Source: an uncultured Nitrososphaerota archaeon (GTDB lineage Archaea > Thermoproteota > Nitrososphaeria > Nitrososphaerales > Gagatemarchaeaceae). From it: a DNA stretch of 64,000 nucleotides. The position numbers were made by a program, and so were the translations under genes. Every line of letters begins with the position of its first letter. Position 1 is the first letter of the stretch. Positions 17,570 to 37,227 of this stretch are shown here, piece by piece. Below the pieces are notes generated by a model. The model saw nothing but the letters and a program-made list of their open reading frames with translations. It had not been told where the DNA came from and ran no database searches. The stretch lies in NCBI GenBank assembly GCA_963718895.1, contig CAVRAG010000004.1, positions 224,001-288,000 of the forward strand. Direction: 5' to 3'.

Positions 17570-18109
17570 TTGATTATCAGTCGTCATACGGTATACGTCT
17601 TAACCAGCGATAGCCTAACTATTTATATCGTAAACAACCACTTGCGCCCTGTGCCCGCGCGAGGGGAAACGGCCGACATATATCAGGCAGCCTACAACGC
17701 CATCATTGCGACGTCCAAAGCGATGAGGCACGCTACCCTGAGACTCTTCGTCGATGAGGGAATGACGGACTCTCAGTTCCTGGCGCTCGGGCTGCTCGTG
17801 AGCAACGGGTCCATGCTGATGAGGAAGATGAGTGACGAGATGCTCGTTACTCCCGCCAATGTTACGGGTATAGTCGACCGGCTGGAGGAAAGGAGATTGG
17901 CTAGGAGAGCGCCCGTCAAGGGAGACAGAAGAGCGACCGCAATTGAAATTACCGCCGACGGAAAGGCTCTGTACGAGAGGGTTGCTGTAAAGAAAGCAGC
18001 CATGGTTCAGAAAGCCCTTGCGACGTTCACAAAGGACGAACTGATGACCCTGCATGGCCTCCTCGAAAAATTCCAAAGGGAAATGTCCCGCTCAATCGGC
18101 GAGCGCTAG
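17570..18109 (+). CDS. MarR-family regulator
   Basis: GMTDSQF, TPANVTGIVDRLEE, GDRRA..IEITADG; divergent from the oxidoreductase. Confidence 0.9.
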   Translation: MIISRHTVYVLTSDSLTIYIVNNHLRPVPARGETADIYQAAYNAIIATSKAMRHATLRLFVDEGMTDSQFLALGLLVSNGSMLMRKMSDEMLVTPANVTGIVDRLEERRLARRAPVKGDRRATAIEITADGKALYERVAVKKAAMVQKALATFTKDELMTLHGLLEKFQREMSRSIGER

Positions 18110-18197
18110 GATTATTCCTGACGGTTGGTTCAAAATCCATCGAGCGAAAGTATCCTAGTCGAAGCTCACCGGCCCCAACCGATTTCTCGATTCCCTT

Positions 18198-18291
18198 TAG
18201 GTCCGAGATCATGGTCCGGTACGCTTCCATCAAAGGAAGACTGACGCCCATGTATTCGACGGTGCTCTTGTCTGCTTCCTCATCGACGCCC
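18198..18291 (-). pseudogene. Diverged fragment of the 3' end of the Cas1-fusion gene
   Basis: Translates GVDEEADKSTVEYMGVSLPLMEAYRTMISDL versus GVGEEADKSMVEYKGVKLPLMEAYRTTVSDL at about 33140-33234. Confidence 0.85.
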
Positions 18292-21686: not shown

Positions 21687-21910
21687 AACGAAAATCGGCA
21701 GTGGTGCTGACGATCGGGTTCACACTGATCTTCGTCACTCTTGTTCCCGCTGTCTACAACTCGAGCTATCAGCACGGCGTCATCGGCATAGGAATCGGCG
21801 GGAGTGTCTGCTTTGGCTCACCAGACCAGTTTCGTTCGATATCTCTAGTGGTCTTCGGTGGTGGCGCGGCCGTCCGCTGGGGGACCTACGTTCCTTTCAC
21901 TTTCTGTTAG
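21683..21910 (+). CDS. Small membrane protein, distant variable-loop family member
   Basis: MKR+TM+P, loop, SISLVVFGGG; ATGA overlap with the upstream gene. Confidence 0.55.
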   Translation: MKRKSAVVLTIGFTLIFVTLVPAVYNSSYQHGVIGIGIGGSVCFGSPDQFRSISLVVFGGGAAVRWGTYVPFTFC

Positions 21911-21955
21911 CCTTTATTCAGGACCGCATATCCGGGGCAATCTACGCGACCACGG

Positions 21956-22123
21956 TTAGCACGAGTTAGGCAGTTTCTTCTGGTATCGGGCCAGCGTTCC
22001 CAAGAGAACCTCTTCAACGTCGACGTCCATCTCGTTTGCCATGGACATTGACGAAAAGATGGCGTCTCCCAGCTCTGCCACGGTCTTGTCGCTCACGTTT
22101 TCGATTCCGCATTTTCCATAGTC
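21956..22123 (-). pseudogene. MazG-like NTP pyrophosphohydrolase 3' fragment, copy 1
   Basis: DYGK...ELGDAIFSSMSMANEMDVDVEEVLLGTLARYQKK. Confidence 0.6.
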
Positions 22124-22898: not shown

Positions 22899-25149
22899 TT
22901 ACCTGTAGAATGGCACTCCTGCTCTCTCCATCGGGTTGCTCTCCCTGGAGGACCTCACCTTCTTCGCTGCCTCCTGGAAGTGCTCGTAGGTCACGATCGG
23001 TTCACTCAGGTGCTTCTTCGCGTCTTCGGGCTTCGGATACTTGGCGATGTATGCTTGAAGAACGATGGAGAGCGCCGTGTTCACAAGCGCGGCCAGAGTC
23101 TGCCCCATTGAAGCCCTCGGTCATCTCAACGAGACGGTCAACCCCCACGTCCTTTGAGATTGGCTTCCCCTTCAGCTGTATCTGCAATATGCCCTTCCTC
23201 GCCTCCTTGTCGGGCAGCGGGACGTTGACGATCTTGTCGAATCTGCCCGGCCTGAGTAGGGCCGGGTCTACCATGTCAATCCTGTTCGTGGCTGCGAGCA
23301 CCACAACACCCTGTAGCGCCTGGATACCGTCCAGTTCCGTGAGCAGCTGACTGACCACCCTCTCGGTCACATTGCTGTCTCCCCCCATTCCCCTCACTGG
23401 AGCGAGAGCGTCTATCTCGTCGAAGAAGATTATGCATGGAGACGCTTGTCTTGCTCGTTTGAAGACCTCTCGCACACCCCTTTCCGATTCACCCACCCAC
23501 TTGCTGAGCAGCTCGGGTCCCCTGACGCTGATGAAGTTCGCCTCACTCTCGGTCGCAACCGCCTTGGCCAAGAGCGTCTTTCCAGTCCCGGATGGACCGA
23601 ATAGAAGGACCCCCTTCGGCATGCTGTAGCCTATCGCCTTGTACAGGTCAGAGAACTTGAGCGGCCACTCCACAGCCTCCTGAAGTTCCCTCTTTACGTC
23701 CTCCAACCCTCCAATCTCGGACCACTTCACGTCGGGCGTTTCGAGATACACCTCTCTCATTGCCGATGGCACGATTTCTTTCAGCGCGTTCTCGAAGTCG
23801 CCCCCCGTGACAATCAGTTTGTCGAGCAACTCAGGGCTCAGCCGTTCTTCCTGGAGGTTCAGCTCTGGCAGCATCCTCCTGAGGGTCTTCATGGCGGCCT
23901 CTTTGCAGAGATACTCGAGGTCGGCCCCGACGAACCCGTGCGACACTGAGGCGAGCCTCTCCAGGTCGACGTCCTGCAGCAGTGGCATGTGACGAGTGTG
24001 GATCTGCAGTATCTCGTACCTCCCCTTCTTGTCTGGGACCTTGATCTCGATCTCTCGGTCAAACCTGCCTGGTCTTCGGAGGGCTGGGTCCAGCGCGTTG
24101 GGCCGATTGGTGGCTGCTATCACTATGACCTTGCCCCTGGCCTCGAGGCCGTCCATCAAGGAGAGCAACTGGCTGACGACCCTCCTCTCGACTTCACCGG
24201 TCACCTCCTCCCGCTTCGGAGCTATCGAGTCGATCTCGTCGATGAAGACGATGGTAGGCGCCTTCTCCTTTGCCTCCTTGAATATCTCCCTGAGCCTCGC
24301 CTCCGACTCGCCGTAGAACTTGCTCATGATCTCCGGGCCACCTATCGGGATGAAGTGAGCGTTGCTCTCAGTGGATACAGCCTTCGCCAGGAGCGTCTTG
24401 CCGGTTCCCGGAGGGCCGTAGAGGAGGACTCCCTTCGGTGCTTCGACGCCCAACTTCTCGAAAATCTCCGGATGTCTGAGAGGGAGCTCGATCATCTCCC
24501 TTACTTTCTGAATCTCGTCTTTTATGCCACCGATATCTTCGTAGGTTACCTCCGGTACTCCCCTTAGAACCGCGCCCTTCTCAGAAATGACGAAGACCGT
24601 CCTCTGGGTTATCAGCGCCGCTTCTGCTGCGGGACTTATCTCAGTAACCTGAAAAGTGAGCCTACCTCCGAAGTACGGTATCATGACGTTATCCCCCTTC
24701 GTCACCGGAATCCCGTCGAGGGCATCCGCCAGGTATCTTTCGTCGATGGGCGGTGTAGCCACGAGCGGAGCGACCACGACCTTCTCAGCCGGCAGGGCCT
24801 TGACCTTCTTTACGACAACCGTGTCACCGATGGCGACGCCAGCGTTGTTCCTGATGATACCGTCGGTCCTCATTATTCCTCTGCCCTCGTCTGAGGGGTA
24901 GAGGGGGAGGCACCTCGCGACCGTCCGTCTCTTTCCGTTGACCTCGATCACGTCTCCCGTGGACGCGTCCAAACCATCCATCGCGTGATAGTCCAGCCTG
25001 GCCACACCTCGACCCACATCGCGAGTGTATGCCTCCAGAACCTTAAGCTGGACTGGCTGCTGGCTCACTCGTTTGTCACTGGTGGACAATCTTGACGTTC
25101 CTTTGCTATCAATGAGTCTTCCCATGAGATAGGTGTTGCTATCATGCAC
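22899..25149 (-). CDS. cdc48: CDC48/VCP-family AAA ATPase (frameshift near 23097; start probably near 25067)
   Basis: N-domain RDVGRG, two Walker A motifs ([16 protein letters not shown]), Walker [21 protein letters not shown]; C-terminus continues in ORF 22899..23108. Confidence 0.95.
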
Positions 25150-25445
25150 TTAGGAATACAAGTTTAGATGGCATCTTTCGTGAGTGCTAACTTGAAGAGC
25201 TCTCTAACTCAGTACTAAGCTTTCGGCTGATGCTTGAACGTCTTTAGATATTCGGCCGGGTCAACGGATTCTGGGTTGACTCCAGCATGCCCTACTCTTC
25301 AGCCAAGTTCAGCTCGATTTGCTGACTCATGTCGCTTCTTCCAGCTAACAAAAGCAGGAGGCGGATCATGCTCTCAACCCCAGGATGTCGTTGCGCTCGC
25401 TGAGGAGCGCGTAAAGCGGTTGCAGGTTGAGTAGCCGGGGCCGCC

Positions 25446-25502
25446 TTATTTGGTTGCTTTTTTCTTGACAGCCTTCTTCTTGACCGTCTTCGACTTTGCC
25501 AT
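25446..25502 (-). CDS. Candidate 18-aa lysine-rich microprotein MAKSKTVKKKAVKKKATK
   Basis: ATG..TAA ORF with 9 Lys; TATA-like AATTTAAG about 25 nt upstream. Confidence 0.4.
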   Translation of the reverse strand: MAKSKTVKKKAVKKKATK

Positions 25503-25631
25503 CTAGCTGAAGGTCCGTGGCGTTGCTTAAATTGTTTGCAGCCCGCACGCGCGGGCCAGAGCCTCCGGCCTGCCCTTCCCGCGTTTGAGTCGCCGCGAGA
25601 AGGCGAGCGAATGCGTTCTCTATCTTATCCC

Positions 25632-28133
25632 CTAGGACGTGACTATCACGAAGGTGTCGCCACTGGAGCTCGGTGCCGGACTGAAGCCCGCTGTTGTGGC
25701 CGTGGTAGCTGTGTTGGCGGTGATGAGTTGTGCCTCACCTGCTGCAGGACCTGAAGTGTATAGCAGGTAATAGCCGATCCACTCGTTTGTGGTCCAGGAG
25801 GCGCTCGTGTCATTGAGCAGCACGTTCGTGGTCCCAGCCGTGGTGGTCCCGAAGAAGGTGCTGGCGTGTTCGACACAGAAGGTCAAGGGTATGTTTTCGT
25901 AGTCCCGGTCGTCGAGCCCGGTCGTGAGTCCGGGTCTCGTCGAGAGCGTCACCATGTAGGAGCAGGAGTACCATGTGGTCGTGTCCTCAGTGATTGTTCC
26001 GAAACCGCCCCGAGGGGTGGCCCATGGGGCTATTCCCGTGCCCGCGATAGTCCCCGGTGCGGATGTGCTGCAACTGGTGATTGCCAGACTCCAATTCCCG
26101 GCGGCCATCAGTTCATGGTCGACGGTGAATTCTACGCCGAGGGAATCGTCGATTGGGGTGCAACAACCGCTTGAGAACTCGACGAGGTTTAGCTGGTTGA
26201 CCTCGTTCCAGTTGTTCAAGTGGAGTTGGGTGGGGGCCTGGGAGGTATCCGCAGTGGTGCCTGGTGGGAATGTCGTTACCCGGGTGGCTTCGAACGTTAT
26301 CAACGCGTCTATCCCATCTTTCTGCTGGGCCGCAGGTACGGGGTTCCCGGCCCCAGGCAGGGGAGGGGTGCCTCCGATGATAACCTGGGTTGTGTCGAAG
26401 CCAAGGAGATTCGTAAATGAGGAACCAGACAGGAAACTCGGGTCAAAGGTGACCCAGCCGTCGGCGTCCGGCACCAGGTAGTGCGTATTCGGCCAGTACC
26501 ACGGATTACCCACCGTTGGTGGAGGCACATCCGCCACAAGCGTCGGCCCGATGGCCACGGTTTGGGGGGTAGAAGCAGAGCCGGCGGTCGTTATCCAGGC
26601 CGCGTCGTGGGTGGGCCAGGCGATCTCTCGGGTATCCTCTATCTGCCAAAGCAGCGTGCTGGTGATTGGCGCAAGGGTGGAGAGCGCGGCTCCTGCAGCT
26701 GCCGTTCGTGCCACCGTGCCGTTCACGCCGCGGGTCACCGTCAACGTGGTTCCCGCGTAGTTGGTCACAGTCATGATCTCGCCTGTGCTGATGACCACCA
26801 CATTGAACGGAGTGCCCGGAAGGCCGGCGACCGGAAGACCTGCGACGCTCGCCAGGGTGATAGAGGTCGCAAGGGAGGAGATGGCAGCGGTCAGGGTTGT
26901 TTCAGTGGTGAGCGAGGTCGATGTGGAGGCGCCAAAGAGGAAGCGATACTTCATCAGCGTGCCCGGGGTGACCGGGGAGTATGCCGGACAGAGCCCGCTC
27001 AGTTGCAGTTGTCCGGTGAACGCAAAGTTCGGGCCGCCCCCGTAGGACAGACCAGGGAAGGCGGTACACGTAGTCAGACCCGTTGCGGGAGTGCCAGAGT
27101 TGGGCTGGCTATTGACGTCCGTGAAGATGCTGAGGAAGCCCACCTGGGTGAACCACGGGACGAGGGCGCTGGGGGTGGGATGGCAGATGACTATGCACCA
27201 GCGCGAGCATATCTCGTAGCAGAACCAGTGACAGAGCTGGAGACAGTACCTCTCCGCCTTGTATTCCGTCACCAAGGCTGCGAAGGACTTTGAGTCTCCG
27301 GATTGTAGGGCCGACAGAAGGCGGGGGAATGCATCCTTATTCTCAGCGAGCTGCGCTGAGAACAGCGCGAACTCGCGCATCTCCTCGATTGGATCCTTTA
27401 TCTCAGGAATGGGGAAGGACTGACAGAGGGGAAGGCAGATCCACACGCAGCGCCAGCTGCAGAACCATTCGCAGATCAGATAACAGTCAACGAAGCCGCC
27501 GACGATGTCACTTAGTGAGTCGACGTCAGACGCTACGGCCGCCGCAATCGCGCTCCGAAGTGTCACGCTCTTCTTGGCCAGCTGCCCGACGGCCGCCCCC
27601 ACGCGAGCTAGTTCGGCAACGACCTGGTCCGTCTGCACGTCCTCTTCACCGCAAACAACTTCGCAAATGAGCCGGTAGCGAATTGCGGAGACCCAGTGGC
27701 AGAGCAGGTGACAGTATTGTTCAGCCCCGAGTTCGGCCACGACCGTCTTGAACGCCACCGAATCTCTGTCCTGCACAGCGTCGACCAAGCGCCTGATCAG
27801 AAACTCGTCCTGGCTGAGATTTGACACGACGTCTGCAAAGCCGACGACCTGTTCGACCGTCACGGGTTGTCGGGGTGGCGGTCCGCAGACAAGCAAGCAT
27901 TCAAGCACGCTCTCCTTGCTCCGCAACCACGAGCAGATCACATCACAGTCATCGTCGACCCTTAGGTCTGCCAACAGGTGCTGGAACAGCTTGCTGTCCC
28001 CGGCCTCGAAGGCATCAACGACGGAACGAAATACGACGGGGTTTCTCGCGACTATGCCGATGACTTTGCTCGCACGGGAAAAACGGTCAGGAACTCGAGT
28101 TTCAGCAGTAGGAGTCTTGCTTGGAGAGGACAC
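25632..28133 (-). CDS. 833-aa hypothetical protein with four Cys/Trp-rich helical repeats and a Thr-rich beta C-terminus
   Basis: CxxxCxW-x8-9-CxxxC motif repeated four times at about 70-aa spacing. Confidence 0.75.
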   Translation of the reverse strand: MSSPSKTPTAETRVPDRFSRASKVIGIVARNPVVFRSVVDAFEAGDSKLFQHLLADLRVDDDCDVICSWLRSKESVLECLLVCGPPPRQPVTVEQVVGFADVVSNLSQDEFLIRRLVDAVQDRDSVAFKTVVAELGAEQYCHLLCHWVSAIRYRLICEVVCGEEDVQTDQVVAELARVGAAVGQLAKKSVTLRSAIAAAVASDVDSLSDIVGGFVDCYLICEWFCSWRCVWICLPLCQSFPIPEIKDPIEEMREFALFSAQLAENKDAFPRLLSALQSGDSKSFAALVTEYKAERYCLQLCHWFCYEICSRWCIVICHPTPSALVPWFTQVGFLSIFTDVNSQPNSGTPATGLTTCTAFPGLSYGGGPNFAFTGQLQLSGLCPAYSPVTPGTLMKYRFLFGASTSTSLTTETTLTAAISSLATSITLASVAGLPVAGLPGTPFNVVVISTGEIMTVTNYAGTTLTVTRGVNGTVARTAAAGAALSTLAPITSTLLWQIEDTREIAWPTHDAAWITTAGSASTPQTVAIGPTLVADVPPPTVGNPWYWPNTHYLVPDADGWVTFDPSFLSGSSFTNLLGFDTTQVIIGGTPPLPGAGNPVPAAQQKDGIDALITFEATRVTTFPPGTTADTSQAPTQLHLNNWNEVNQLNLVEFSSGCCTPIDDSLGVEFTVDHELMAAGNWSLAITSCSTSAPGTIAGTGIAPWATPRGGFGTITEDTTTWYSCSYMVTLSTRPGLTTGLDDRDYENIPLTFCVEHASTFFGTTTAGTTNVLLNDTSASWTTNEWIGYYLLYTSGPAAGEAQLITANTATTATTAGFSPAPSSSGDTFVIVTS

Positions 28134-28294
28134 AAAATATCAATTTTTAGAAGACGAATGAAGTATAAAGGTCTTTAATAATGTAAAATATTACATTTCG
28201 ATTACTTTTCCCGAGGATTCGACTCATTATGAAGTTCGGGGGAGGAGATCCCATCCACTTTCCAGCGTATCCGAGGCAGTCAAAGTGAGCGCGG

Positions 28295-28602
28295 TTAGCG
28301 CGAGGCAGGCAGCTTCTTCCGGTATCGGACCAGTGTTGCCAAGAGAACCTCCTCAACGTCGACATCCATCTCGTTCGCCATTGACAACAACGAAAAGACG
28401 GCATCTCCAAGTTCTGGCGAATGTATTCCCGTATCGCCTTCTTGCCGGCCATGGCGGGCTGATCTGGCGGCAGGACGACTGCGTCATCCGCCCAGAAGGA
28501 TACGATCAGGTCTACGTCCCCGGTGGCGGTGGCCCACGCCCAGTCTCGGCTCACTTGCATGAGGGATGCGCGCTCGGCTTCGGAGGAATCCTTGATGTCC
28601 AC
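28295..28602 (-). pseudogene. Truncated SnoaL/DUF4440-like gene joined to MazG-like 3' fragment copy 2
   Basis: GDVDLIVSFWADDAVVLPPDQP..GKKAIR breaks at about 28415; another frame gives ELGDAVFSLLSMANEMDVDVEEVLLATLVRYRKK. Confidence 0.65.
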
Positions 28603-28759
28603 GCGGGACTCTAGAAAGCCAACCAGCTTAAAGACATGCAGAACCCTACTAATCGGAGCGAGGGAGCTACGCTACTTTCACTGACTGTTAGCTTTCATTC
28701 AGGACCGCATGTCCGGAGCAGTCGACGCGACCCGCGGGCCAATTCCAAGCGCCGTGCGG

Positions 28760-29275
28760 TCACATCTGGCGACTCTGCGGGAGAGACCTCCTTCTCAATG
28801 GGAACTCTTCAGTCGGCCAAATGTCCGGCGGTCTGAAGCAACCGCGATGATAGCCCCTGGGACTGAAGAAGTCCAACGCCCTTTCAGCCTCCCTTAGTTT
28901 CTCGCCCATGAGGAAGGGATGCACTTCTTGCACGATTCTTAGGGCTCTCAGACCAACAGCTCTCTTGACCCACACCGGCTGGAAGACGTGGTCGTCTTTC
29001 GGTCTAGAGGGTCTCGACATCCCGACAAGGGCGCAGAACTTGAAGATTGGGTCGGGATCGGTCATTCCGAATGCGAGCTGAATGGCCGTACTGTCCATGG
29101 ACTTCACGTAGTGGCTTTCTATGCAGCCTTCTCCCTGAATCAACCCTCCCACCCAGGATCTTCCCTCGGCTGATGTGATGACGACTCCGGGGACGATTCG
29201 CTGACGCGGTGATACTATGTCCACTCGCAATGACCTCCCTGATGTCCCCTTCATCGCAATTCTGTCCATCTTCAC
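28760..29275 (-). CDS. Single-motif LAGLIDADG endonuclease-like protein B
   Basis: SWVGGLIQGEGCI motif, MTDPDPI, VHPFLMGEK; paralog of the upstream gene. Confidence 0.7.
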   Translation of the reverse strand: MKMDRIAMKGTSGRSLRVDIVSPRQRIVPGVVITSAEGRSWVGGLIQGEGCIESHYVKSMDSTAIQLAFGMTDPDPIFKFCALVGMSRPSRPKDDHVFQPVWVKRAVGLRALRIVQEVHPFLMGEKLREAERALDFFSPRGYHRGCFRPPDIWPTEEFPLRRRSLPQSRQM

Positions 29276-29856
29276 ACCCCCCGTTTCGACCCGCGATGTT
29301 TCGTTCTTTGCGGGAAATCTTTCGGGGTCCAGATGTCACCGTTCCTGAAACATCCGCGATGGGAACCCTCGGGCTCAAAGAAACTCAGCGCTCTTTCAGC
29401 TTCCCTCCGCTTCGTGCCGACGAGAAATGGTAGGATCTCGTGCAGGACACGAAGGGCTCTCAGGACAGCGATGTTCTTGTGCCATAACGGCTTCCACTGG
29501 TGATTCTTGACTGGCTTCGTGGGTGGCTCAAGTCCAACATACTCTGACAGTCGGAAGATAGGGGCGGAATCCACCATTGACACGTGAAGAGCCAGGTAAG
29601 TTGTATTACTCTTCTTGAGGTAACCGCTCTGAATACAACCTTCTCCCTGGATTATTGAGGCGACCCAGGATCTTCTCTCCTCCGTAGGGATGACAACATC
29701 AGGAATGTCCTTTCGCATAACTACAGCCAAGTTCGGTCGCCGGTGCCATTCCTCAGGCGCCTTGATTCCCAGCTTTCGCATGTGACACCACACAGTCGTC
29801 GCTTGGCTGTATCCCATCCTCTTGGCTGCTTCAGTCCGGGTCTTGCTAGTCTTCAC
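29272..29856 (-). CDS. HTH plus single-motif LAGLIDADG endonuclease-like protein A
   Basis: N-terminal TRTEAAKRMGYS..TVWCHMRKLGI HTH; SWVASIIQGEGCI; ILPFLVGTK. Confidence 0.7.
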   Translation of the reverse strand: MKTSKTRTEAAKRMGYSQATTVWCHMRKLGIKAPEEWHRRPNLAVVMRKDIPDVVIPTEERRSWVASIIQGEGCIQSGYLKKSNTTYLALHVSMVDSAPIFRLSEYVGLEPPTKPVKNHQWKPLWHKNIAVLRALRVLHEILPFLVGTKRREAERALSFFEPEGSHRGCFRNGDIWTPKDFPQRTKHRGSKRGV

Positions 29857-30018
29857 TACCTCCTCGAAATACGCCGGAAACTCTGGACTTTCGAAGGGCG
29901 GTCTTGTTCCATAGGGAAACTTGTCCCAATTCTTACCTGCTTGCTGATCTGTGAGTCCGTGCTCGTTCTATCATTAACTTCCTCCGTCCTCTTATCCACC
30001 ACTGCATCATCGGTCATC

Positions 30019-30450
30019 TCAGACGCCTCCCAGCTCCCTGACCACGGACCCGAACTCCTCCATCGAGTAGGCCATGAAATCGGCGTCCTCCATGACCGCC
30101 CCGACGACGCTCCGGAGGGACTCCATGTCCACCTGCGGGAACTCGGCCAGCCCTAGGCACCTCACCCCCGGACGTACCGCCTTCAGCCTCCTGAACTTCA
30201 GGTTGACGTAGAGCGCGTTCCTCTCCGCCCAGCCCAAGGCAACCCCCCTCCGGCTCTCGCTCCTCCAGCACTCGATTACCGCGTCGAGCTTGGGTAGGAA
30301 GAAGTCAGGGACCATCAGCCGGGCGCCGACCTGGAATGTCACGTGCACCGAATACTCAAGGCGGAGGCCTTGGAGAAGGTCCCTCACTTCCTCTTCCTGC
30401 ATAGTCATCGGCGCACGGGCGTGCACCTTGCTCATCCATTTTGCAGACAT
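30019..30450 (-). CDS. PD-(D/E)xK (Vsr/DUF559-like) nuclease
   Basis: QEEEVRDLL..LEY..F..VPDFFLPKLDAVIECW. Confidence 0.65.
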   Translation of the reverse strand: MSAKWMSKVHARAPMTMQEEEVRDLLQGLRLEYSVHVTFQVGARLMVPDFFLPKLDAVIECWRSESRRGVALGWAERNALYVNLKFRRLKAVRPGVRCLGLAEFPQVDMESLRSVVGAVMEDADFMAYSMEEFGSVVRELGGV

Positions 30451-30481
30451 CTCTATCGCAAATAGATGGTAATGGGCTTAT

Positions 30482-30568
30482 TAAACACCACAAGGGATTT
30501 ATCTTGCGATTCTAAAGTAATAGAGTCTATTTTGGGCTAATCAGTCCCCATATCCGGCGTGGTGTTTA
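30482..30568. promoter_or_regulatory. Divergent promoters sharing an identical GTGGTGTTTA element (10-bp inverted repeat)
   Basis: TAAACACCAC 30482-30491 and GTGGTGTTTA 30559-30568, each about 30 nt upstream of a start codon. Confidence 0.7.
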
Positions 30569-30596
30569 TTGCCGAATCCGGCCTGTACACCCTGAG

Positions 30597-33287
30597 TTGG
30601 AGCGTCTCACCCGACCTTCCAAGCTCGTGCTGCTTGCGGCCGGTACCGACAAGGGGAGCCCGGTCCGCGTAGCCGACGCCATCTACGACTCCTTCAGGAG
30701 CTACCGGAACGACCGCTGCGCCGTCTTCACGCGGGACGACGAGATCGAACGGTTCCTGCAAGACTCGGGCATCGACGCGGAGCGCCTCGAGCCGGGAGAG
30801 AACCTCCACTGGCAGGGTGTGCAAACGAGCCTGAAGAGGAAGTGGAAACGCATTATCATCGGAGACTACGTCGACTGGTTCAGCTGGTGCATGCAGTGGC
30901 AGAGGTTCAACGCGTTCCACACCGTGATTCTCTTCAGGCCCCTCAGCCGGATGGCCGATGACGAGGGCAGAGGGTACATCGACGGCTTCCTGACGAGGCT
31001 GTTGAACAAGCCCAGCCTGCACAGGGTCATCGTAATCGAGGAGACTGGCCTCCTGCCTGTGGTCGAGCAATGGATGGGAGATGGCCCTTCAATCTCTCAC
31101 CCGGGACTCTCGGGTCGCTTCGGCACAGACGAGGTCCGCGAAGCAATCCTCGCTACACTCTTCGGGACCAGACTCTCACATACGGACCTGAACCGTGCGG
31201 TAGGCAGGACGCTGTCGGCCAAGCTGAACCCGGACTGGCCCTCCATCTTGCAGAAGACGGAATCATCTCCGAGGATTCTGAGGCGCAACAACTTCCGCTT
31301 GCTCACAGATGAAGCGATGGAGAGGGTTCAGAGTCTTAGCAAGATTTCAACTAAGACTGCCGAACAGGGGCCCGGACATGAGGAGCTCTTCCGGCTCTCC
31401 CGGAAGCGGGAGCATCTGCGGGCCGACGACCAGTGGATCGAGGAGCGGATTCTCACCCTGGTGGAGGAGCGCGGCTGGTTCACCACTCCTGTGCTGTACG
31501 ACTATGCAAGAAGCCAGCTCGAGGAAGTCCTGCGGAGCAGCACGCCGCCTCCCTGGGCTATCCTGGACCAGTTCGAGAGGGCCCCGAACGACCCGCCAAT
31601 GGTGAACCTCCCGAGCAGGGCTACGCTGAGGCGGGTCGCAGAGCGCATGATCACGGAGGGGCGGCTGGCCAGGTCGACCTGGTTCAGGGAGGTAGGGCGG
31701 CCGAGCACCGTGTACCACAAGCCCGGGTCAGGTGAGTTCGCCCAAGACAATCGATGTGGCCAGTGCGCGTTCTACGTCCCGCTGAGAAGACGCTGCCGGC
31801 TCTGGTGGCTCCTCGACAAGGCCTTCGGCACCCACGACCCGCGCTGGAGCAAGGAGGGGGCGCACCCCCTCTCCGAGTTCGAACTCTACAAGATGAGGAA
31901 CTCGTGGCGGATAAGCCCGCACTCCTCGGCCTGCGCCCGTTTCACCGACAAGAAGAAGGACCATTCGCGGAAGGAGGTCCCTGAGAGCTGCGAGATCTGC
32001 AGCGAACCCCTACCAGAATCCAAGTCCAGCCTAGTTATCTGCAGAAAATGCAGGACAAGGTACGCCACGGTCAAACGCCACGTCAGGGTGTTGACCGCGT
32101 ACGAGCACGAGTTCGAGAGGAACTACCGGGACCTCGCGGGCAGGGATTCTACGTCCGATGTCACGAGGCTGGAAGAGGAGAGACAAGGTTCCACTTCTAG
32201 AATCCTGGAACGCATCTACTATGATGAGCACCGTCCAGCGTCCGACGACAAAGACGAGCGCAGGACGCTGACGATCTATCCCGGGGACAGGATGCTGGTA
32301 AAGGAAGGTAAGCTCTACATCTTCAAGAGACGGAATGTCGAGGCTGTCCCACTGACAGGCACGACGCTCGTCGACAACGGCGTGATAGGTGAGGAACAGC
32401 TCAAGGCGCTCGAAGATGCGGGGGCGACCGTCCGGAAGGCAACAAGCTCCAATGCACCTCCCATGGAAGCGAAAGAACCAAGGTTTGACATCAGTCCACT
32501 CGTAGAAAGGGCCGTCCTCGAGCGCCCCGAACTCGCCCGCGGATTCGCCTTGGCCATGGCCAAGAGCGCAATCGACGCCACCGAGAGAATAGCCGCCCTC
32601 CCGCAGACGCAGGAGGCGGAGGCCATACCTTTGAAGAGGGAAGAGCTCCGGCTTTTCGGGCGTCTGGAGAGATCCGGCCCGAACGGGTTCCTGACCTTCG
32701 AGGCGCGGATCATGATTCAATACTGGAAGTGCTTCAACCTGCCGCTCCGACGCGTCTTCGAAAGGTTCGGGCCCCGCAAGCGCTCACGTTTCGTGAGAGA
32801 GAGCGTGACGGCTGCGTCGGGCAGGGCCAGGGGGTACTCCGCGGTGGACGCGGCGATAAACTACCTGCACCAGAGGCGGCTCTTCAAGTGCAGACAGGTC
32901 AACATCCAGCTGGGGCTCGAATACAACCCGGGGGAGGGCTTTTTGCACAGGAGGAGGTGGAACTCGGATGGCCTAGGCCTGCTTCTCGACCTCATCGACC
33001 CCTTCAAGTTCGCTGACAGGGAGAAGCTCCTGAGCGCGATACTGGATTCAAGAGTCAACTGGAGGGACTTCTACAGCTCGACGGACAGGCACGGAGTCCG
33101 GTTCTACTATCCGAAACCGGAGGCGATAGGCACGCTCGAGGGCGTGGGCGAGGAAGCAGACAAGAGCATGGTGGAGTACAAAGGCGTCAAGCTCCCGCTT
33201 ATGGAAGCTTACCGGACCACGGTCTCCGATCTGATTGAGAACCTTCAGAAGGACGGGAAACCGTCTTTCACACCTTTCGCATACTGA
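30597..33287 (+). CDS. cas1: Multidomain Cas1 fusion: degenerate Hel308/Ski2-like region, wHTH, Cys clusters, C-terminal Cas1 domain
   Basis: Cas1 beta domain TLTIYPGDRMLVKEGKLYI..VPL (from about aa 555); catalytic-type motifs FE702ARIMIQYW, DAAINYLH, GLEYNPGEGFLH784, LLD798LIDPFKFAD. Confidence 0.8.
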   Translation: MERLTRPSKLVLLAAGTDKGSPVRVADAIYDSFRSYRNDRCAVFTRDDEIERFLQDSGIDAERLEPGENLHWQGVQTSLKRKWKRIIIGDYVDWFSWCMQWQRFNAFHTVILFRPLSRMADDEGRGYIDGFLTRLLNKPSLHRVIVIEETGLLPVVEQWMGDGPSISHPGLSGRFGTDEVREAILATLFGTRLSHTDLNRAVGRTLSAKLNPDWPSILQKTESSPRILRRNNFRLLTDEAMERVQSLSKISTKTAEQGPGHEELFRLSRKREHLRADDQWIEERILTLVEERGWFTTPVLYDYARSQLEEVLRSSTPPPWAILDQFERAPNDPPMVNLPSRATLRRVAERMITEGRLARSTWFREVGRPSTVYHKPGSGEFAQDNRCGQCAFYVPLRRRCRLWWLLDKAFGTHDPRWSKEGAHPLSEFELYKMRNSWRISPHSSACARFTDKKKDHSRKEVPESCEICSEPLPESKSSLVICRKCRTRYATVKRHVRVLTAYEHEFERNYRDLAGRDSTSDVTRLEEERQGSTSRILERIYYDEHRPASDDKDERRTLTIYPGDRMLVKEGKLYIFKRRNVEAVPLTGTTLVDNGVIGEEQLKALEDAGATVRKATSSNAPPMEAKEPRFDISPLVERAVLERPELARGFALAMAKSAIDATERIAALPQTQEAEAIPLKREELRLFGRLERSGPNGFLTFEARIMIQYWKCFNLPLRRVFERFGPRKRSRFVRESVTAASGRARGYSAVDAAINYLHQRRLFKCRQVNIQLGLEYNPGEGFLHRRRWNSDGLGLLLDLIDPFKFADREKLLSAILDSRVNWRDFYSSTDRHGVRFYYPKPEAIGTLEGVGEEADKSMVEYKGVKLPLMEAYRTTVSDLIENLQKDGKPSFTPFAY

Positions 33288-33696
33288 GCAGACAGCCCTT
33301 CGCCCAAACGGCCTCGAGTTTAGGGTCTGTCACCGTCCTCCAGAAATCGAAATGCTTCAGCGTCTCCTCTCTCGTCATGAACTGCACCGGCCTCGTCACG
33401 CTAACCATCTTTTCGTGGAACAGCTCATGCACAGGAATGGGCCGGGCGAGGGCATGGTTCACTTCGACGCCGACGCCAGAGGTGATCCTGTTCAGGAGCC
33501 TGCTGAAGACCAGCCCGTCGCAGCAGTCTATCAGTCCAAACCAGTACGCCATCCCATCCTTCTTACCCTGATCGTTCTGAAGAGTTCCTGGATTCACTAT
33601 CTCGCAACCGGGCAAGTGGGTAGCTATCGCAAGCATCTCGGCTTTCTCGAGCGCGGTCCCGTAGAGGCACATGGCATGGGCGTAGTAGACCCGCAC
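33268..33696 (-). CDS. Nucleoside 2-deoxyribosyltransferase-like protein
   Basis: VYYAH, IVNP, IDCCDGLVF, TSGVGVEVNHA..IPV. Confidence 0.6.
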   Translation of the reverse strand: MRVYYAHAMCLYGTALEKAEMLAIATHLPGCEIVNPGTLQNDQGKKDGMAYWFGLIDCCDGLVFSRLLNRITSGVGVEVNHALARPIPVHELFHEKMVSVTRPVQFMTREETLKHFDFWRTVTDPKLEAVWAKGCLLSMRKV

Positions 33697-33864
33697 ACAT
33701 CATCCTAGTACAAAGAAACTCGGGCCTATAATCGCCATGGTGCATCTGCGAATGCGACCAGAAGGTGCACCAAACAATCAAAGTATATTTAACCAACCAG
33801 ATTTGGTCGTGGCCACCCGAGGTTAGAGAAAATCAAAGGACGCAATTACCGCGAAGTTAAGTCA

Positions 33865-34347
33865 ATGGCTTACACCAGCAAGTACTACGCACCCGGCGCA
33901 CCCAACTCCAAGGTCGCCAGGTTCACCACAGGAAAGGCGAACCCCGACTACAACTACTGCATCAACCTGGTCTCCAGGGGAAGGGTCCAGATCAGGCACA
34001 ACGCCCTCGAGGCGGCCCGTGTGGCTGCGAACAAGAAATTGGTCAGCCTTGGAGAAGAGGGGTACCTTCTCACCGTGAAGACATACCCTCATATAATTTT
34101 GAGAGAGAACAAGATGATCGCCACCGCAGGCGCAGACAGGCTCCAGGAGGGTATGAGGAAGGCCTTCGGCAAGCCGATAGGTCTGGCCGCCCGCGTGGAC
34201 ATAGGCAGCACGATACTCGAGCTCCAGGTCAAGACGGCCGACCTCCAGCTGGGCAAGAACGCGCTCCACGCGGCGAAGGCGAAGCTGGGCGTGCTCACGG
34301 ACGTCGTAGCCGTAGAGATCCCGAAGGCCCCCACGCCCGCTGCCTAG
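33865..34347 (+). CDS. rpl10e: 50S ribosomal protein uL16 (L10e)
   Basis: [49 protein letters not shown]. Confidence 0.97.
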   Translation: MAYTSKYYAPGAPNSKVARFTTGKANPDYNYCINLVSRGRVQIRHNALEAARVAANKKLVSLGEEGYLLTVKTYPHIILRENKMIATAGADRLQEGMRKAFGKPIGLAARVDIGSTILELQVKTADLQLGKNALHAAKAKLGVLTDVVAVEIPKAPTPAA

Positions 34348-34538
34348 CCGCTGACCAGTCGGCATAGTCAAGGCGTTAATCGACAGAGGATTTCAAGCAG
34401 GTAGATGCTGCGCACAGGATTCATCACTCATCCGGGGACTCATCCAGGTACGTCGGTTGTGATAGGATGTCAAGGCGGGAATTCCAGTTGCTCTCCGGGC
34501 TTTTACGTGCGAACCGCGTCGGACCCCGAGGCCCTCTC
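34304..34538 (+). repeat. rpl10e 3' end plus first array repeat (copy A)
   Basis: Directly repeated at 38386..38618; ends CTTTTACGTGCGAACCGCGTCGGACCCCGAGGCC. Confidence 0.85.
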
Positions 34539-34675
34539 TCGTCCCACCTCCGTCCCGCGCGACGCTACCAAGAGGCGACTCTGGAACTTCGGCAAGGCAG
34601 AGAGTGTTCCTCTATTCCTACATGAGTTGCCCCGAATAATCTTGGGTTGACGGCTGCCTTCGGAGGTTAGTCTAT

Positions 34676-36289
34676 CTAATCTCTCCTTATCGCCATGTAC
34701 AGGAAACAGGCGAGGGGAACGAGTATCCATAAGACCGCCGCTGCAACGATGGTGGGGATAGTTATCCCGTAAGCTTGGGGCACTATGGAAAAGCTCTGTC
34801 CGGCTAGAACCGGAAGCCCAACGGAAGATATTGTTCCAGTGAGGTATGTGCCTACGAGGCTCACGAATGCAGCGGGATTCACAAACTCCAAACTCACAGA
34901 GAGCTGGTAGAACCCCACAGAGCCGCTCTGAATCCCCAGTACTGACGTAACTAGAGTGGCAATCACGCCTTGGAAGAAGTCGATTACCAGGAACAGTCCC
35001 ACGCCTATTCCAATCAGCGAACCCGAAGACCTCACGAGATGCGAGAGAAGCATCATTGTCCCGATGAAGGCAGCTAGCTCCACCAGAAGACCCGCGGTTG
35101 ACGATATCAGAATCGAAGCATCGATGAACAACCCAGAGAAATGTTGGGCGATTAGGTCCAGCGCGGCCACCGAGGCGAGCGTGGCCACGGATATCCCGGC
35201 GAAGCTCGAGACGTACCTGGAAAGAGACAGTCCCCTTCGCGTGACGGGTTGGGCGAGCACGGACTCGAGGACTCCTGAAACGCGGTCCTTGCCGTATACG
35301 CTGTACACCGTGACTATCGTCAAGAGAGGGATGAAGAGACCGAAGAAGGTCTCGAAGAACGAGACGGCGACCTGATTGTTCAGCGCCCTCGTGAGCGCCG
35401 AATCAGGATACACCTGTCCAAGCGGCAAGTTAGAGGTTGACGTGGCGACGCTCGTGCCGTTCGGATACGCTAGACCTATTGCAACTATGTCGCCGGAAGC
35501 AGCAATAGTTGCTGGAGCTTCAGAGAGATTCCCAGTCAGTTGAGGAGAGGGGAGGACCTGGACGTAGGACCTCATCGTGCCGAGAAGCTGGGCGTTCGAC
35601 TGGTTCAGCTCGGCTGGAATAAGGGTCTCGGCTTGTACGCCTCCGCAGTCCTGCACGAACGCCCCGTTCTGGCACGGGGTCCCGCTGAGGAATCGGTAAT
35701 AGACGAGGTACCCGCTTGGTGAAGAGCCATTGAAACCGGCCCAGGACACCAGAATGTCCCTGGATGATGTATTCGTGAGGCCCGTGACGGTCGCGGGCGT
35801 GGCAGGCGATTGGTAACGGGTCGTGTGGAACACCGAGACGGTCTGACCGGGAGGGGTACTGCTTGAGAATGGCGCGTAATCACCACTAACTATGACGGAA
35901 GAACCGGAGGCCGTCACGACCACGCCGACTGAGTAGCTATTGCTCTCTGGAACGGCTATCGTGAACTGGGTCGAGCCGCTCGAGTTGGTGACCGCTGACC
36001 CAGATACTGTACGGGGCGGAACGGCTGGGATGGTCACGTTCAAGTCGAACTTCACCCCCGCCGCGGGTTGGCCGAACTCGGTCCACGCGAGTGCGATGAA
36101 GTGATATCCGCTCGAGTTATAGTAGACAAAGATCTGGCTGGTGTTGTTGTTGTTCGGGGGGATGGCGTTCGCGGAGAAGCTCCCAAAGGCTGCGAGGCTC
36201 AGGAGCACCATCGCAGCCATCGCAATCAGGACGGACTTGCTGGTCAGAGTCCTTCTAGTGTCGTAGAGGAACGGGCCCAGCATGCTCAC
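34676..36289 (-). CDS. ABC-2 permease with large extracellular domain
   Basis: N-terminal TM; YGKDRVSGVLESVLAQPVTRR; ends RRD. Confidence 0.85.
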   Translation of the reverse strand: MSMLGPFLYDTRRTLTSKSVLIAMAAMVLLSLAAFGSFSANAIPPNNNNTSQIFVYYNSSGYHFIALAWTEFGQPAAGVKFDLNVTIPAVPPRTVSGSAVTNSSGSTQFTIAVPESNSYSVGVVVTASGSSVIVSGDYAPFSSSTPPGQTVSVFHTTRYQSPATPATVTGLTNTSSRDILVSWAGFNGSSPSGYLVYYRFLSGTPCQNGAFVQDCGGVQAETLIPAELNQSNAQLLGTMRSYVQVLPSPQLTGNLSEAPATIAASGDIVAIGLAYPNGTSVATSTSNLPLGQVYPDSALTRALNNQVAVSFFETFFGLFIPLLTIVTVYSVYGKDRVSGVLESVLAQPVTRRGLSLSRYVSSFAGISVATLASVAALDLIAQHFSGLFIDASILISSTAGLLVELAAFIGTMMLLSHLVRSSGSLIGIGVGLFLVIDFFQGVIATLVTSVLGIQSGSVGFYQLSVSLEFVNPAAFVSLVGTYLTGTISSVGLPVLAGQSFSIVPQAYGITIPTIVAAAVLWILVPLACFLYMAIRRD

Positions 36290-37227
36290 TTCGCCTGCTC
36301 CGGACCACTCGACGCGCCGACCAGCCTGAAGAAGTACTCCTCAAGGTCGGATTTCTGGACCGAGAACTCCCGGAGGAGGTACCCCTTCTTCATCAGCTCA
36401 GCGCTCACTTCCGAGGGATCGGCCTCAAACCCGGAGAGAACGATGCTGGACTCGCTCTCGACGCTGACCGTACCGAGAGTGCGAAGGTAGTCCAAGCCGC
36501 TCTCGTTTAGGTTCGGAATCGTCATTCGCAGGACGCCGTTGCCGCGCTCTATGGCGGCCAGCTCGCCTCTCGTGAGAGTCTTGATTACCTTCCCCCTGTG
36601 GATGAAGATGATTCTGTCGGAGACGGCTTCGATCTCGGAGAGTATGTGAGAGGAGAGGAGGACGGACTTGCTCTGCTTCCTCAGGTCCGTCAGGAGGGCA
36701 CGGACAGACCTTATGCCCTGTGGATCCAGCCCGTTCAGCAACTCATCGAAAAGAAGGTCCTTCGGTTCAGGAAGCAGAGCTAGCGCGAGGGAGAAACGCT
36801 TCTTCATCCCCTGTGAGTAGTCTCGGAGACGTTCCCTTTCGTGTCCCGAAAGCTCGAGGAGCTGGAAGAGCTCTTTGGCTCTTCTTTCGGCGGCGTCTCT
36901 TTCGATCCGGCGGAAACCCGCAAAGTAGAGTAGCAGACTCTCAGCCTTGGCGTTCTGCTCATAGTTCGGAAACTCCGGTACCCAGCCAATCTGCTCGGAG
37001 GCTTTGCGCTTGTCCGCGACTATGTCGTGGCCGTCAATCGTGACCGCTCCCGACGTGGGGAGAGACACGCCGCTCGCGACTCTGATGGTCGTCGTCTTGC
37101 CTGCCCCGTTCAGTCCGACGAAACCCACCACCTCGCCATCTTCCACCGAGAACGATACGTCGTCCAACGCGGAGACTTTCGTCTCCCCCCTCCCGTAGTG
37201 CTTTGTCAGATTCGCGACCCTTATCAT
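36286..37227 (-). CDS. ABC transporter ATP-binding protein
   Basis: GLNGAGKTT, YSQGMKKR, LLFDE, SSH. Confidence 0.95.
   Translation of the reverse strand: MIRVANLTKHYGRGETKVSALDDVSFSVEDGEVVGFVGLNGAGKTTTIRVASGVSLPTSGAVTIDGHDIVADKRKASEQIGWVPEFPNYEQNAKAESLLLYFAGFRRIERDAAERRAKELFQLLELSGHERERLRDYSQGMKKRFSLALALLPEPKDLLFDELLNGLDPQGIRSVRALLTDLRKQSKSVLLSSHILSEIEAVSDRIIFIHRGKVIKTLTRGELAAIERGNGVLRMTIPNLNESGLDYLRTLGTVSVESESSIVLSGFEADPSEVSAELMKKGYLLREFSVQKSDLEEYFFRLVGASSGPEQAK

Follow-up and report, generated by a model that had tools for sequence, protein, structure and literature searches.

The DNA studied here is a stretch of 64,000 nucleotides (the window) from an uncultured archaeon of the Nitrososphaerota (contig CAVRAG010000004.1, positions 224,001 to 288,000; coordinates below are those of the window). 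At 30597–33287 on the plus strand it carries a gene, which we call Cas1f, whose product joins a probable helicase remnant, a winged helix-turn-helix (wHTH), two predicted zinc modules and a C-terminal Cas1 domain. A small partner gene lies directly upstream on the opposite strand (30019–30450), across an intergenic region of 146 nt, and two LAGLIDADG-like open reading frames (ORFs) follow it on the same strand as the partner (28760–29856), so that the block comprises Cas1f, its partner and the LAGLIDADG-like neighbour. A first-pass annotation, made from the letters of the window, had singled out the protein as an unusual Cas1 fusion, and all the sequence strings it quoted are present in the 896-aa translation.

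Cas1f is a genuine conserved gene. The ORF begins with TTG, a start that is supported because the closest homologue (P0002) begins at the equivalent position. A large protein collection was searched; of the 8,000 candidates that were scored, 76 are homologues at E ≤ 1e-3, the best of them 74% identical across 99% of the query, and their sources are mainly metagenome-assembled genomes (MAGs) labelled Thaumarchaeota or Nitrososphaerales. Full-length forms measure 880–930 aa and are 40–74% identical; a shorter form measures 770–840 aa. A Pfam search with the single sequence returned just Prok-RING_1 (E 0.14) and FtrD-like (E 0.18), searches of NCBIfam and, with phmmer, of the PDB returned no match, and the full-length family profile matched PDB entries at chance level alone (adenylate kinase at E 0.053, C1/PHD fingers).

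Domain architecture of Cas1f

The C-terminal third of the protein is, judging from its modelled fold and its alignments, a complete two-domain Cas1 with an intact E/H/D(D) pattern. Its N-terminal beta domain spans residues ~556–625 (32262–32471, plus strand), as placed by the strands of the model (model positions 178–235) and by a structural alignment that starts at residue 1 of Archaeoglobus fulgidus Cas1 (4n06_A). The alpha-helical catalytic domain spans residues ~633–896 (32493–33284, plus strand), as delimited by PADLOC, by PF01867 in relatives and by profile alignment. The Cas1 identity is established because four independent lines lead to it: PADLOC, PF01867 in relatives, the Cas1-domain profile and the structure model. 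PADLOC Cas1 models match residues 649–828 (PDLC01608 at E 4.7e-6, PDLC01248 at E 6.8e-5), and PF01867 is matched by 18 of 34 aligned family members, with a best value of 8.5e-11. The Cas1-domain profile of the family retrieves canonical Cas1 genes in two genomes, G620 (1.5e-8) and G545 (1.1e-4). In the AlphaFold2 model of residues 380–896 (predicted local distance difference test, pLDDT, 82.3), residues 556–896 align in VIA with residues 1–343 of 4n06_A (Z 20.6, root-mean-square deviation, rmsd, 6.8, 295 residues aligned), and the alignment extends to the last residue of Cas1f. A Cas6-reverse transcriptase (RT)-Cas1 fusion (7kfu_C; Z 19.6, rmsd 2.8, 237 aligned) and the Methanosarcina mazei casposase (6opm_A; Z 19.4) follow, and all 50 of the VIA matches listed for this model are Cas1 or casposase entries. 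Foldseek places 4n06_B at E 2.7e-9 and gives 73 matches at E ≤ 1e-3.

The candidate active site is conserved in the family. E702 (codon 32700–32702), H784 (32946–32948) and D798 (32988–32990), all on the plus strand, do not vary among 34 aligned sequences whose identity goes as low as 28%, and D801 (32997–32999) is kept in at least 90% of them. In profile alignments with 4n06 and 8k23, which are marginal, E702 falls on the glutamate of the Cas1 motif IEG..YW, and H784, D798 and D801 fall on LH...D..D..K. These residues correspond to E141, H208, D218 and D221 of Escherichia coli Cas1, mutation of which abolishes activity according to the accessible part of one source (PMC4046053). The first-pass annotation had placed a Cas1 with a beta domain at about residues 555–896 and had named the same four residues, and the full-length alignment with 4n06_A together with the invariance of the site confirms that assignment.

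The beta domain mediates dimerisation in known Cas1 proteins. One short subfamily (770–840 aa; P0043–P0069 and G299/L004) lacks the whole of it and keeps the catalytic residues; the deletion covers alignment columns ~645–720 and appears as split matches in genome searches. Because this subfamily is nested inside the long form in our tree (100%), the loss is secondary.

Upstream of the Cas1 domain, Cas1f carries three further modules. A second winged helix-turn-helix occupies residues ~278–375 (31428–31721, plus strand) in the AlphaFold2 model, with helices at 278–292, 297–313 and 341–353 and strands at 358–365 and 368–374; its wing reads GRPSTVY, and R368 is invariant. The equivalent stretch matches GntR and HTH_11 in one relative (P0131) and TrmB in another (P0179). 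A first four-cysteine (Cys4) module follows at residues ~385–450 (31749–31946, plus strand; C387, C390, C400 and C446; model pLDDT 81–93), and then a zinc-ribbon-like CxxC...CxxC module at residues ~460–500 (31974–32096, plus strand; C465, C468, C482 and C485), which forms beta hairpins in the model. All eight cysteines are invariant in 34 aligned family members, and both modules would be expected to bind metal. Prok-RING_1, a weak match in Cas1f itself, is matched by 8 of the 34, with a best value of 2e-4. The wHTH with its GRPSTVY wing and the two clusters CGQC..C..C and CEIC..CRKC had all been read from the translation at the first pass, and each of them stands, the wHTH being modelled at ~278–374.

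The first ~250 residues appear to be what is left of a Hel308/Ski2-type helicase. In the AlphaFold2 model of residues 1–400 (pLDDT 87.8, predicted template-modelling score, pTM, 0.81) they form a RecA1-like alpha/beta domain with its ATPase motifs lost (residues ~5–175; 30609–31121, plus strand) and, packed on it as domain 3 is in Hel308, a winged helix (residues ~176–250; 31122–31346, plus strand) made of helices followed by strands 228–230 and 234–236. Residues 5–250 superpose on Hel308 9b15_A with Z 16.5 (rmsd 3.5, 223 aligned, chain residues 35–486), and other Hel308 entries match in VIA over similar ranges (2p6u at Z 16.4 and 2va8_A at Z 15.9; model residues 5 to 249–263 against chain residues 35 to 486–617). 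All 50 VIA matches listed for this model are helicases of the Hel308, Brr2, ASCC3, PolQ or Eta type. Foldseek E-values for the N-terminal model are weak, and the Orc1/Cdc6 chains in its first rows were rejected (template-modelling score 0.15–0.18, rmsd ~20), the helicase matches borne out by VIA being preferred. Since ~225 residues align over a chain span of ~450 and the region measures just 250 aa, the match takes in RecA1 and the winged helix and skips RecA2. With 223–230 residues aligned between model residues 5–249/253 and Hel308 chain residues 35–486/495, the ranges suggest that the skipped part amounts to ~200 chain residues and that no room is left for a RecA2, and by the same ranges the ratchet domain and RecA2 are absent from the N-terminal region. 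Domain 3 of Hel308 is a winged helix at ~405–490.

This helicase remnant has evidently lost its ATPase. The motif G.GK[ST] occurs in the first 260 aa of none of 77 family proteins, and DExH-like strings are present in 11 of the 77 at non-homologous positions. Across the family alignment the loop that follows strand 1 varies or is missing, a hydrophobic strand followed by an invariant proline stands at the position of motif II, and the columns of the ATPase motifs show no conservation. No sequence-level similarity of the N-terminus to helicases was detected, either with the profile against the PDB or in profile–profile comparison with two long relatives that carry helicase domains (P0204 and P0208, described below). 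It had been proposed from the letters that the first ~230 aa resemble a dead Hel308-like RecA1 domain with its winged helix and that the Walker A and B motifs are gone; the structural match and the motif counts uphold both statements. The comparison of AlphaFold models by Foldseek, domain by domain, had been suggested as a check on the whole architecture, and Foldseek with VIA returned the Cas1 fold for the C-terminal third, while for the N-terminus it was VIA that gave the Hel308 type clearly.

Genomic setting and relatives of Cas1f

Cas1f is a solo Cas1, outside any CRISPR system, as the first-pass annotation had supposed. Its assembly (3.13 Mb in 11 contigs) has no PF01867 Cas1, Cas2 or Cas4 match and no CRISPR array in a crude k-mer repeat scan, and at 80.5% completeness the absence of CRISPR parts is not proven. 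Among 21 Cas1f-bearing genomes of the same family, 18 have no PF01867 match, two match through Cas1f itself and one has a separate, broken Cas1 fragment; PF01867 is carried by 168 of 301 genomes sampled across the phylum. The genes shared by the 8-kb flanks of 22 Cas1f loci are housekeeping genes, and cas genes are not among them.

The family makes up a clade of its own in a phylogeny built from 78 Cas1 domains. The tree holds 44 members of the extended family, chosen for coverage and with fragments omitted, the best 30 of the phylum's canonical Cas1 proteins and, in addition, four divergent Cas1 of Nitrosopumilaceae, which are not verified as casposases. The 44 family rows are split from the 34 canonical and divergent rows by a branch with 100% support in the Shimodaira–Hasegawa-like approximate likelihood-ratio test (SH-aLRT); the tree was built quickly, its branches are long and its outgroup is purely archaeal. 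A Cas1 phylogeny had likewise been among the checks first suggested, and within this archaeal sample it sets the family apart from CRISPR Cas1.

The family reaches beyond proteins of the size of Cas1f. A profile search of 1.84 billion representatives reached E ≤ 1e-10 in 109 of the 150 matches listed and E ≤ 1e-30 in 65; relatives of 1,000–2,080 aa in which the wHTH-Zn-Cas1 part recurs are among the matches. Some 30 of those listed are clusters made up of the C-terminal part alone, which may be fragments from contig ends. By hhalign, the family alignment matches the relative P0179 at E 9.6e-21 (columns 340–877) and P0204 at E 1e-11 (columns 441–887). P0204 and P0208 (~2,050 aa), two of 14 long relatives scanned by Pfam, combine DEAD, Helicase_C and Cas1 and possess GxGKT and DEAH; G.GK[ST] is absent from 13 of 15 long relatives tested. 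The helicase part of P0204 is nearest to Eta (7ujb, 6.5e-10) and to Hel308 of Sulfolobus solfataricus (2va8, 5.9e-8, residues 36–613). A sequence link from the Cas1f N-terminus to the helicases of P0204 and P0208 was tried as a candidate and rejected, the profile comparison aligning just the Zn-Cas1 part. In the tree, the two DEAH-Cas1 proteins lie near the base of the family and the protein of the window lies in a derived clade. On the simplest reading a helicase-Cas1 fusion may have decayed to the present form of Cas1f, the link at the N-terminus being one of modelled structure and of position. The catalytic pattern persists in these distant relatives, as E, H and D..E in the proteins of two loci (L029 and L030) that belong to a different family of the phylum, and as E/H/D in P0179 and P0204.

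Two observations concern P0204 itself. Its 2,082 aa continue for ~840 residues past Cas1 (~1290–2082), where a DHH-phosphoesterase-like motif and a RecA/KaiC-like stretch can be made out by eye and where Pfam gives no match at E ≤ 1e-3. A metagenome scan for relatives of the P0204 type gave one weak match, to the helicase only (L075, 23% identity).

Cas1f differs from each of the systems it resembles. With CRISPR Cas1 (PF01867; A. fulgidus 4n06, type I-C 8d3p) it shares the two-domain fold and the positions of the E/H/D(D) motif; unlike CRISPR Cas1, it comes with no Cas2, Cas4 or array that we could find, carries ~555 extra N-terminal residues, falls in its own clade and below Pfam detection, and includes a subfamily from which the beta domain is missing. 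Casposases (Cas1-solo group 2; M. mazei 6opm) share with it a Cas1 outside CRISPR, the full catalytic set and a close structural match (Z 19.4), whereas Cas1f has no PolB neighbour among the ORFs scanned, no terminal inverted repeats (TIRs) found at the block and no C-terminal HTH, and adds the N-terminal wHTH, Zn and helicase-remnant modules and a stable chromosomal position in relatives. Cas1-solo group 1 of the Methanomicrobiales is, like Cas1f, unlinked to CRISPR and shows no signs of mobility; however, in the available portion of the source it is described with an incomplete active site and from Methanomicrobiales only, while the residues of Cas1f are invariant and its hosts are archaea of Nitrososphaerales type (PMC4046053). 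The RecA1-like domain and winged helix superpose on superfamily 2 (SF2) helicases of the Hel308/Ski2-like group (2p6u, 9b15 and 2va8; Brr2, PolQ and Eta 7ujb) with Z 14–16.5 over 223–245 residues, but those helicases own a RecA2, a ratchet domain and motifs I and II, all of which Cas1f lacks along with any detectable sequence similarity. Finally, Cas4-Cas1, RT-Cas1 and Cas6-RT-Cas1 fusions likewise place Cas1 at the C-terminus of a multidomain protein (7kfu, Z 19.6); they lie in CRISPR loci, where the extra domains make or trim prespacers, in contrast to the dead helicase, wHTH and Zn modules of Cas1f outside CRISPR.

Some homologues are already named 'CRISPR-associated endonuclease Cas1' by the JGI and NCBI pipelines, and for that reason we claim no novelty for the Cas1 domain as such. 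The new elements are the family as a separate Cas1 lineage, its helicase-derived N-terminus, its partner gene and its beta-less subfamily. In print, Cas1 outside CRISPR comprises casposases and the inactive Methanomicrobiales group, as far as the accessible text of one source goes (PMC4046053). A full-text literature search, which covered the available text of PMC4046053, PMC6563490, PMC6452270 and PMC10910872 among others and left supplementary tables and arCOG outside it, found neither a helicase-Cas1 nor a Hel308-Cas1 architecture described; in the 25 matches listed of 130, 'helicase-Cas1' and 'Cas1-helicase' each occurred 0 times. The first-pass annotation had not recognised the fusion among those with Cas4, reverse transcriptase, Cas6 or a C-terminal HTH, and that search agrees with it.

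The partner gene (30019–30450, minus strand) encodes 143 aa with a putative PD-(D/E)xK-like motif set (D...E-C-W and a conserved K and E), identified by adjacency, by a hidden Markov model (HMM) and by alignments. Clustering the ORFs of the window and 23 related loci, we found a protein of ~143 aa directly upstream on the opposite strand in 21 of 24, and the partner also stands beside diverged paralogues within one genome. Scanned with its HMM, 23 of 29 loci give a match, L029 and L030 among them; in these two the Cas1 protein (544–550 aa) consists of the wHTH, the two Zn modules and Cas1 and has no helicase-like part. Because the partner is kept beside these helicase-less forms, we regard the pair as a conserved unit. 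In the partner alignment an Asp and a Glu-Cys pair are invariant; the invariant residues include D47 and E58 (alignment numbering), and E-C-W stands in place of E-x-K. Leads to its fold are weak, namely PADLOC models HEAT_CxxC_PDDEXK (E 0.021) and PDC-S69 (E 0.0043) and the Atlas clusters PvuRts1I_N and DUF559 (0.90–0.91), and Pfam, PDB and PHROG gave no match. A complex prediction for the Cas1f of L004 (825 aa) with its partner (142 aa) scored 0.00 in both runs, which speaks neither for nor against binding.

Between the two genes, the divergent intergenic region (30451–30596) contains an A/T-rich core at ~30476–30504 and a palindrome-like GC-N10-GC element at ~30523–30537. The core GCTwwwTAA..ACC-ACAArGG.TTTATCT is present in 15 of 15 aligned loci, those of paralogues included. 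Core and palindrome may together represent back-to-back promoters, each with a TATA box and a B recognition element (BRE), and an operator.

We assign the neighbouring ORFs at 28760–29856 (minus strand) to a LAGLIDADG-like type with moderate confidence, from their sequence matches. The first (29272–29856) would encode an HTH and the first half of a homing-endonuclease-like domain, as suggested by its relatives and by phrog_5046 (E 1.1e-9), and the second (28760–29275) the other half, matching phrog_5046 at E 3e-10 and the Atlas clusters LAGLIDADG_1 and _3 at 0.92–0.93 with 178–188 shared features. phrog_5046 is labelled 'HNH endonuclease', neither ORF of the window has a Pfam match, and the sole PDB profile match is I-HjeMI, at both LAGLIDADG motifs, with E 0.23. 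Q-G-E-G (from Q70) is invariant in the domain. The two halves are fused as a tandem-domain protein of 382–537 aa in four loci (L006, L009, L012 and L019) and split, as in the window, in L007 and L013; besides the window, 8 of the 29 scanned loci carry the gene. Elsewhere in the same genome lies another, distant LAGLIDADG-like ORF pair (L074; C8:1250421–1251331), 26–32% identical to that of the window; its first ORF has a near-canonical motif with weak matches to Pfam LAGLIDADG_1 (E 0.022) and _3, and its second, of 80 aa, seems truncated.

Cas1f is distributed patchily. Of the 97 genomes of its own taxonomic family 21 carry it, spread over 6 of the 10 genera, and it is present in 3 of the 26 genomes of high quality and in 10 of the 22 belonging to its genus. 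A sample of the class gave 2 carriers of the family among 301 genomes, with none among 180 from the largest sister family; across the phylum, the Cas1-domain profile picked it up in 6 of 401 sampled genomes. Several genomes carry two or three Cas1f paralogues on one contig, and some copies contain stops or are fragmentary. In relatives, the block occupies one chromosomal position among genes for L10e, a THUMP-type methyltransferase, SpoU, KsgA, Pus10 and SRP54. There L10e stands beside the LAGLIDADG-like gene. In the window, where the compared stretch runs from 28760 to 34347, L10e is found on the plus strand past the 3' end of Cas1f, and the three-gene block seems to be inverted as a unit relative to L10e when compared with eight relatives (L006, L007, L009, L012, L013, L016 and L019 among them).

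The window also holds a relic of a second Cas1f copy at 18199–18291 on the minus strand, which matches residues 847–879/880 (fragment 74% identical; 76% over 33 aa in tblastn). It forms a 93-nt inverted repeat, 78% complementary to 33140–33232 on the plus strand and 14.8 kb upstream of it, and sits in a short ORF (18027–18251, minus strand); the homology ends ~55 nt before the position of the Cas1f stop codon. Relics of this kind were considered as element ends or att-like duplications, a reading that we did not adopt. Isolated C-terminal fragments of Cas1f (the last ~50–100 residues) occur in several related genomes too, at G327:C6:89943–90242 (plus strand) and 112383–112682 (minus strand), inverted and 22 kb apart, and at G377:C16:35414–35707, G311:C26:33013–33156 and G376:C97:3141–3299. 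Such fragments could reflect decay, contig ends or something systematic.

Proposed function and competing explanations

We propose that Cas1f represents a catalytically competent, CRISPR-independent branch of Cas1, a metal-dependent DNA nuclease or integrase that acts with its partner as an accessory and dispensable module, and we would put the probability of this reading at about 0.6. The core of the branch would be the wHTH, the two Zn modules and Cas1, to which Cas1f adds the Hel308/Ski2 remnant of RecA1 and winged helix. The site formed by E702, H784 and D798 (with D801) would perform phosphoryl transfer, cutting or joining DNA, while binding and choosing that DNA would fall to the inactive helicase remnant, both winged helices and the Zn modules; that the extra domains choose the target or substrate, as was first suggested, is plausible. 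The ~143-aa PD-(D/E)xK-like protein would act together with Cas1f, perhaps as a physical partner, and this protein, with the LAGLIDADG-like one where present, may process DNA ends. The pair would be co-regulated from the conserved bidirectional promoter and operator.

As to its purpose, the patchy, paralogue-rich and decaying distribution argues for an accessory module of conflict type or of selfish origin rather than a core repair factor, and the housekeeping surroundings and Hel308 ancestry keep a repair role alive. We would give a defence-like role, or that of a domesticated selfish element, slightly less than even odds; a role of some other kind seems rather unlikely, and one as an accessory factor at forks or in DNA repair a shade more so.

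Several points weigh against our proposal. The link to helicases is a structural one alone, since what aligns in profile–profile comparison with the active-helicase relatives is limited to the Zn-Cas1 part. Cas1f taken by itself has no Pfam, NCBIfam or PDB sequence match to Cas1, and PF01867 misses the gene in the genome. The short subfamily without a beta domain implies that the canonical Cas1 dimer may not be needed. The nuclease fold of the partner is suggested by weak leads and remains putative. In relatives the block lies among housekeeping genes (L10e, rRNA and tRNA methyltransferases, Pus10, SRP54) rather than within a defence island, and viral contigs yielded no relative, a setting that fits repair as well as it fits defence.

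Cas1f may instead be an accessory factor of DNA repair or of the replication fork, with no part in conflict with mobile elements, its Hel308 module recognising forks or branched DNA and its Cas1 domain cleaving them. Hel308 is a family of fork-repair helicases, from whose fold the N-terminus derives, and the housekeeping flanks in relatives would suit such a role. A Cas1 has also been reported to act in archaeal DNA repair, in the part of that report available to us (PMC9051519). Against these stand a distribution that is patchy even within the genus and the family and empty in the sampled sister family, the expansion of paralogues, the stop-containing copies and relics, and the link to a homing-endonuclease-like gene, and we consider this explanation unlikely.

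Alternatively, Cas1f could be the casposase of an unrecognised casposon-like element that carries the partner and the LAGLIDADG-like genes as cargo or as accessory genes for mobility. As a Cas1 it stands alone and its site is intact, and the casposase 6opm nearly equals CRISPR Cas1 as its structural match (Z 19.4 vs 20.6); paralogues, pseudogenes and C-terminal relics, the inversion of the block relative to L10e and the homing-endonuclease-like neighbour all have the look of mobility. However, Pfam finds no family B polymerase among 10 neighbouring ORFs (23002–37227), and no TIRs were found at the ends of the block, where diverged ones could be missed, the sole long inverted repeat being the 93-nt coding relic 14.8 kb away. 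The block keeps the same chromosomal position in several MAGs whose proteins are just ~50% identical, no relatives come from viral contigs, the family stands apart from all other Cas1 rows in the tree, and the Cas1 alignment runs to the last residue, with no C-terminal HTH after it. An origin of this kind is improbable.

More speculatively, Cas1f might be what reduction has left of an ancient 'capture-and-integrate' machine independent of CRISPR. Such a machine would represent a third Cas1 lineage next to CRISPR Cas1 and casposases, and its full P0204-type form would couple a Hel308-type helicase to a site-directed Cas1 integrase. LAGLIDADG enzymes leave 3'-OH overhangs, the type of substrate that Cas1 joins; in the thaumarchaeal form the LAGLIDADG-like enzyme and the small nuclease would then prepare ends, which Cas1f would insert at a site read by its wHTH and Zn modules. 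If true, this would amount to a repeat-free DNA memory or to a cut-and-paste system, and we give the idea little credence at present.

It is highly improbable that Cas1f is mainly a DNA-binding regulator or scaffold whose Cas1 domain is kept for its structure and not for catalysis. Two winged helices with Zn modules, a palindrome-like element in its own promoter region, a helicase part that is clearly inactivated and a subfamily without the beta domain would fit such a protein, and yet E702, H784 and D798 are invariant across the 34 sequences and their pattern persists in L029/L030, P0179 and P0204, whereas the described inactive Cas1-solo group 1 has lost such residues, according to the portion of PMC4046053 at hand. 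That Cas1f is a Cas1 of ordinary CRISPR adaptation, with an array and cas genes that fell into the gaps of an 80.5%-complete assembly of 11 contigs, as the Cas1 names given to some homologues by the JGI and NCBI pipelines might suggest, is scarcely conceivable given a genome with no Cas2, Cas4, canonical Cas1 or array found, 18 of 21 carriers with no PF01867 match, flanks at 22 loci that share housekeeping and not cas genes, and a separate clade.

Should our proposal of a competent, CRISPR-independent branch hold, a further Cas1 lineage with an intact site, its own partner and helicase-fused relatives would widen the known uses of Cas1. It would also bear on the origin of CRISPR adaptation, raising the question of whether Cas1 acted alongside helicases and modules that bind specific DNA sequences earlier than casposons or in parallel with them, and Cas1f would offer a compact integrase with DNA-reading domains of its own that can be tested in vitro.

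Other features near the block

A Cdc48-type double AAA ATPase (CDC48_N, CDC48_2 and two AAA domains) is encoded at 23002–25149 on the minus strand, 5.4 kb upstream of the block, with no sign of linkage to it. Between it and a SnoaL-like gene lies an ORF of 833 aa (25632–28133, minus strand) for which Pfam and PADLOC give no match save a chance-level one to Ddi2_HDD (E 0.004). Direct repeats of 152 nt (82%) and 71 nt (85%) relate 21881–22077 of the window to 28265–28416 and 28662–28732, the order of the pieces differing, and connect the region of the SnoaL-like gene just outside the block with an intergenic stretch 6.3–6.8 kb upstream.

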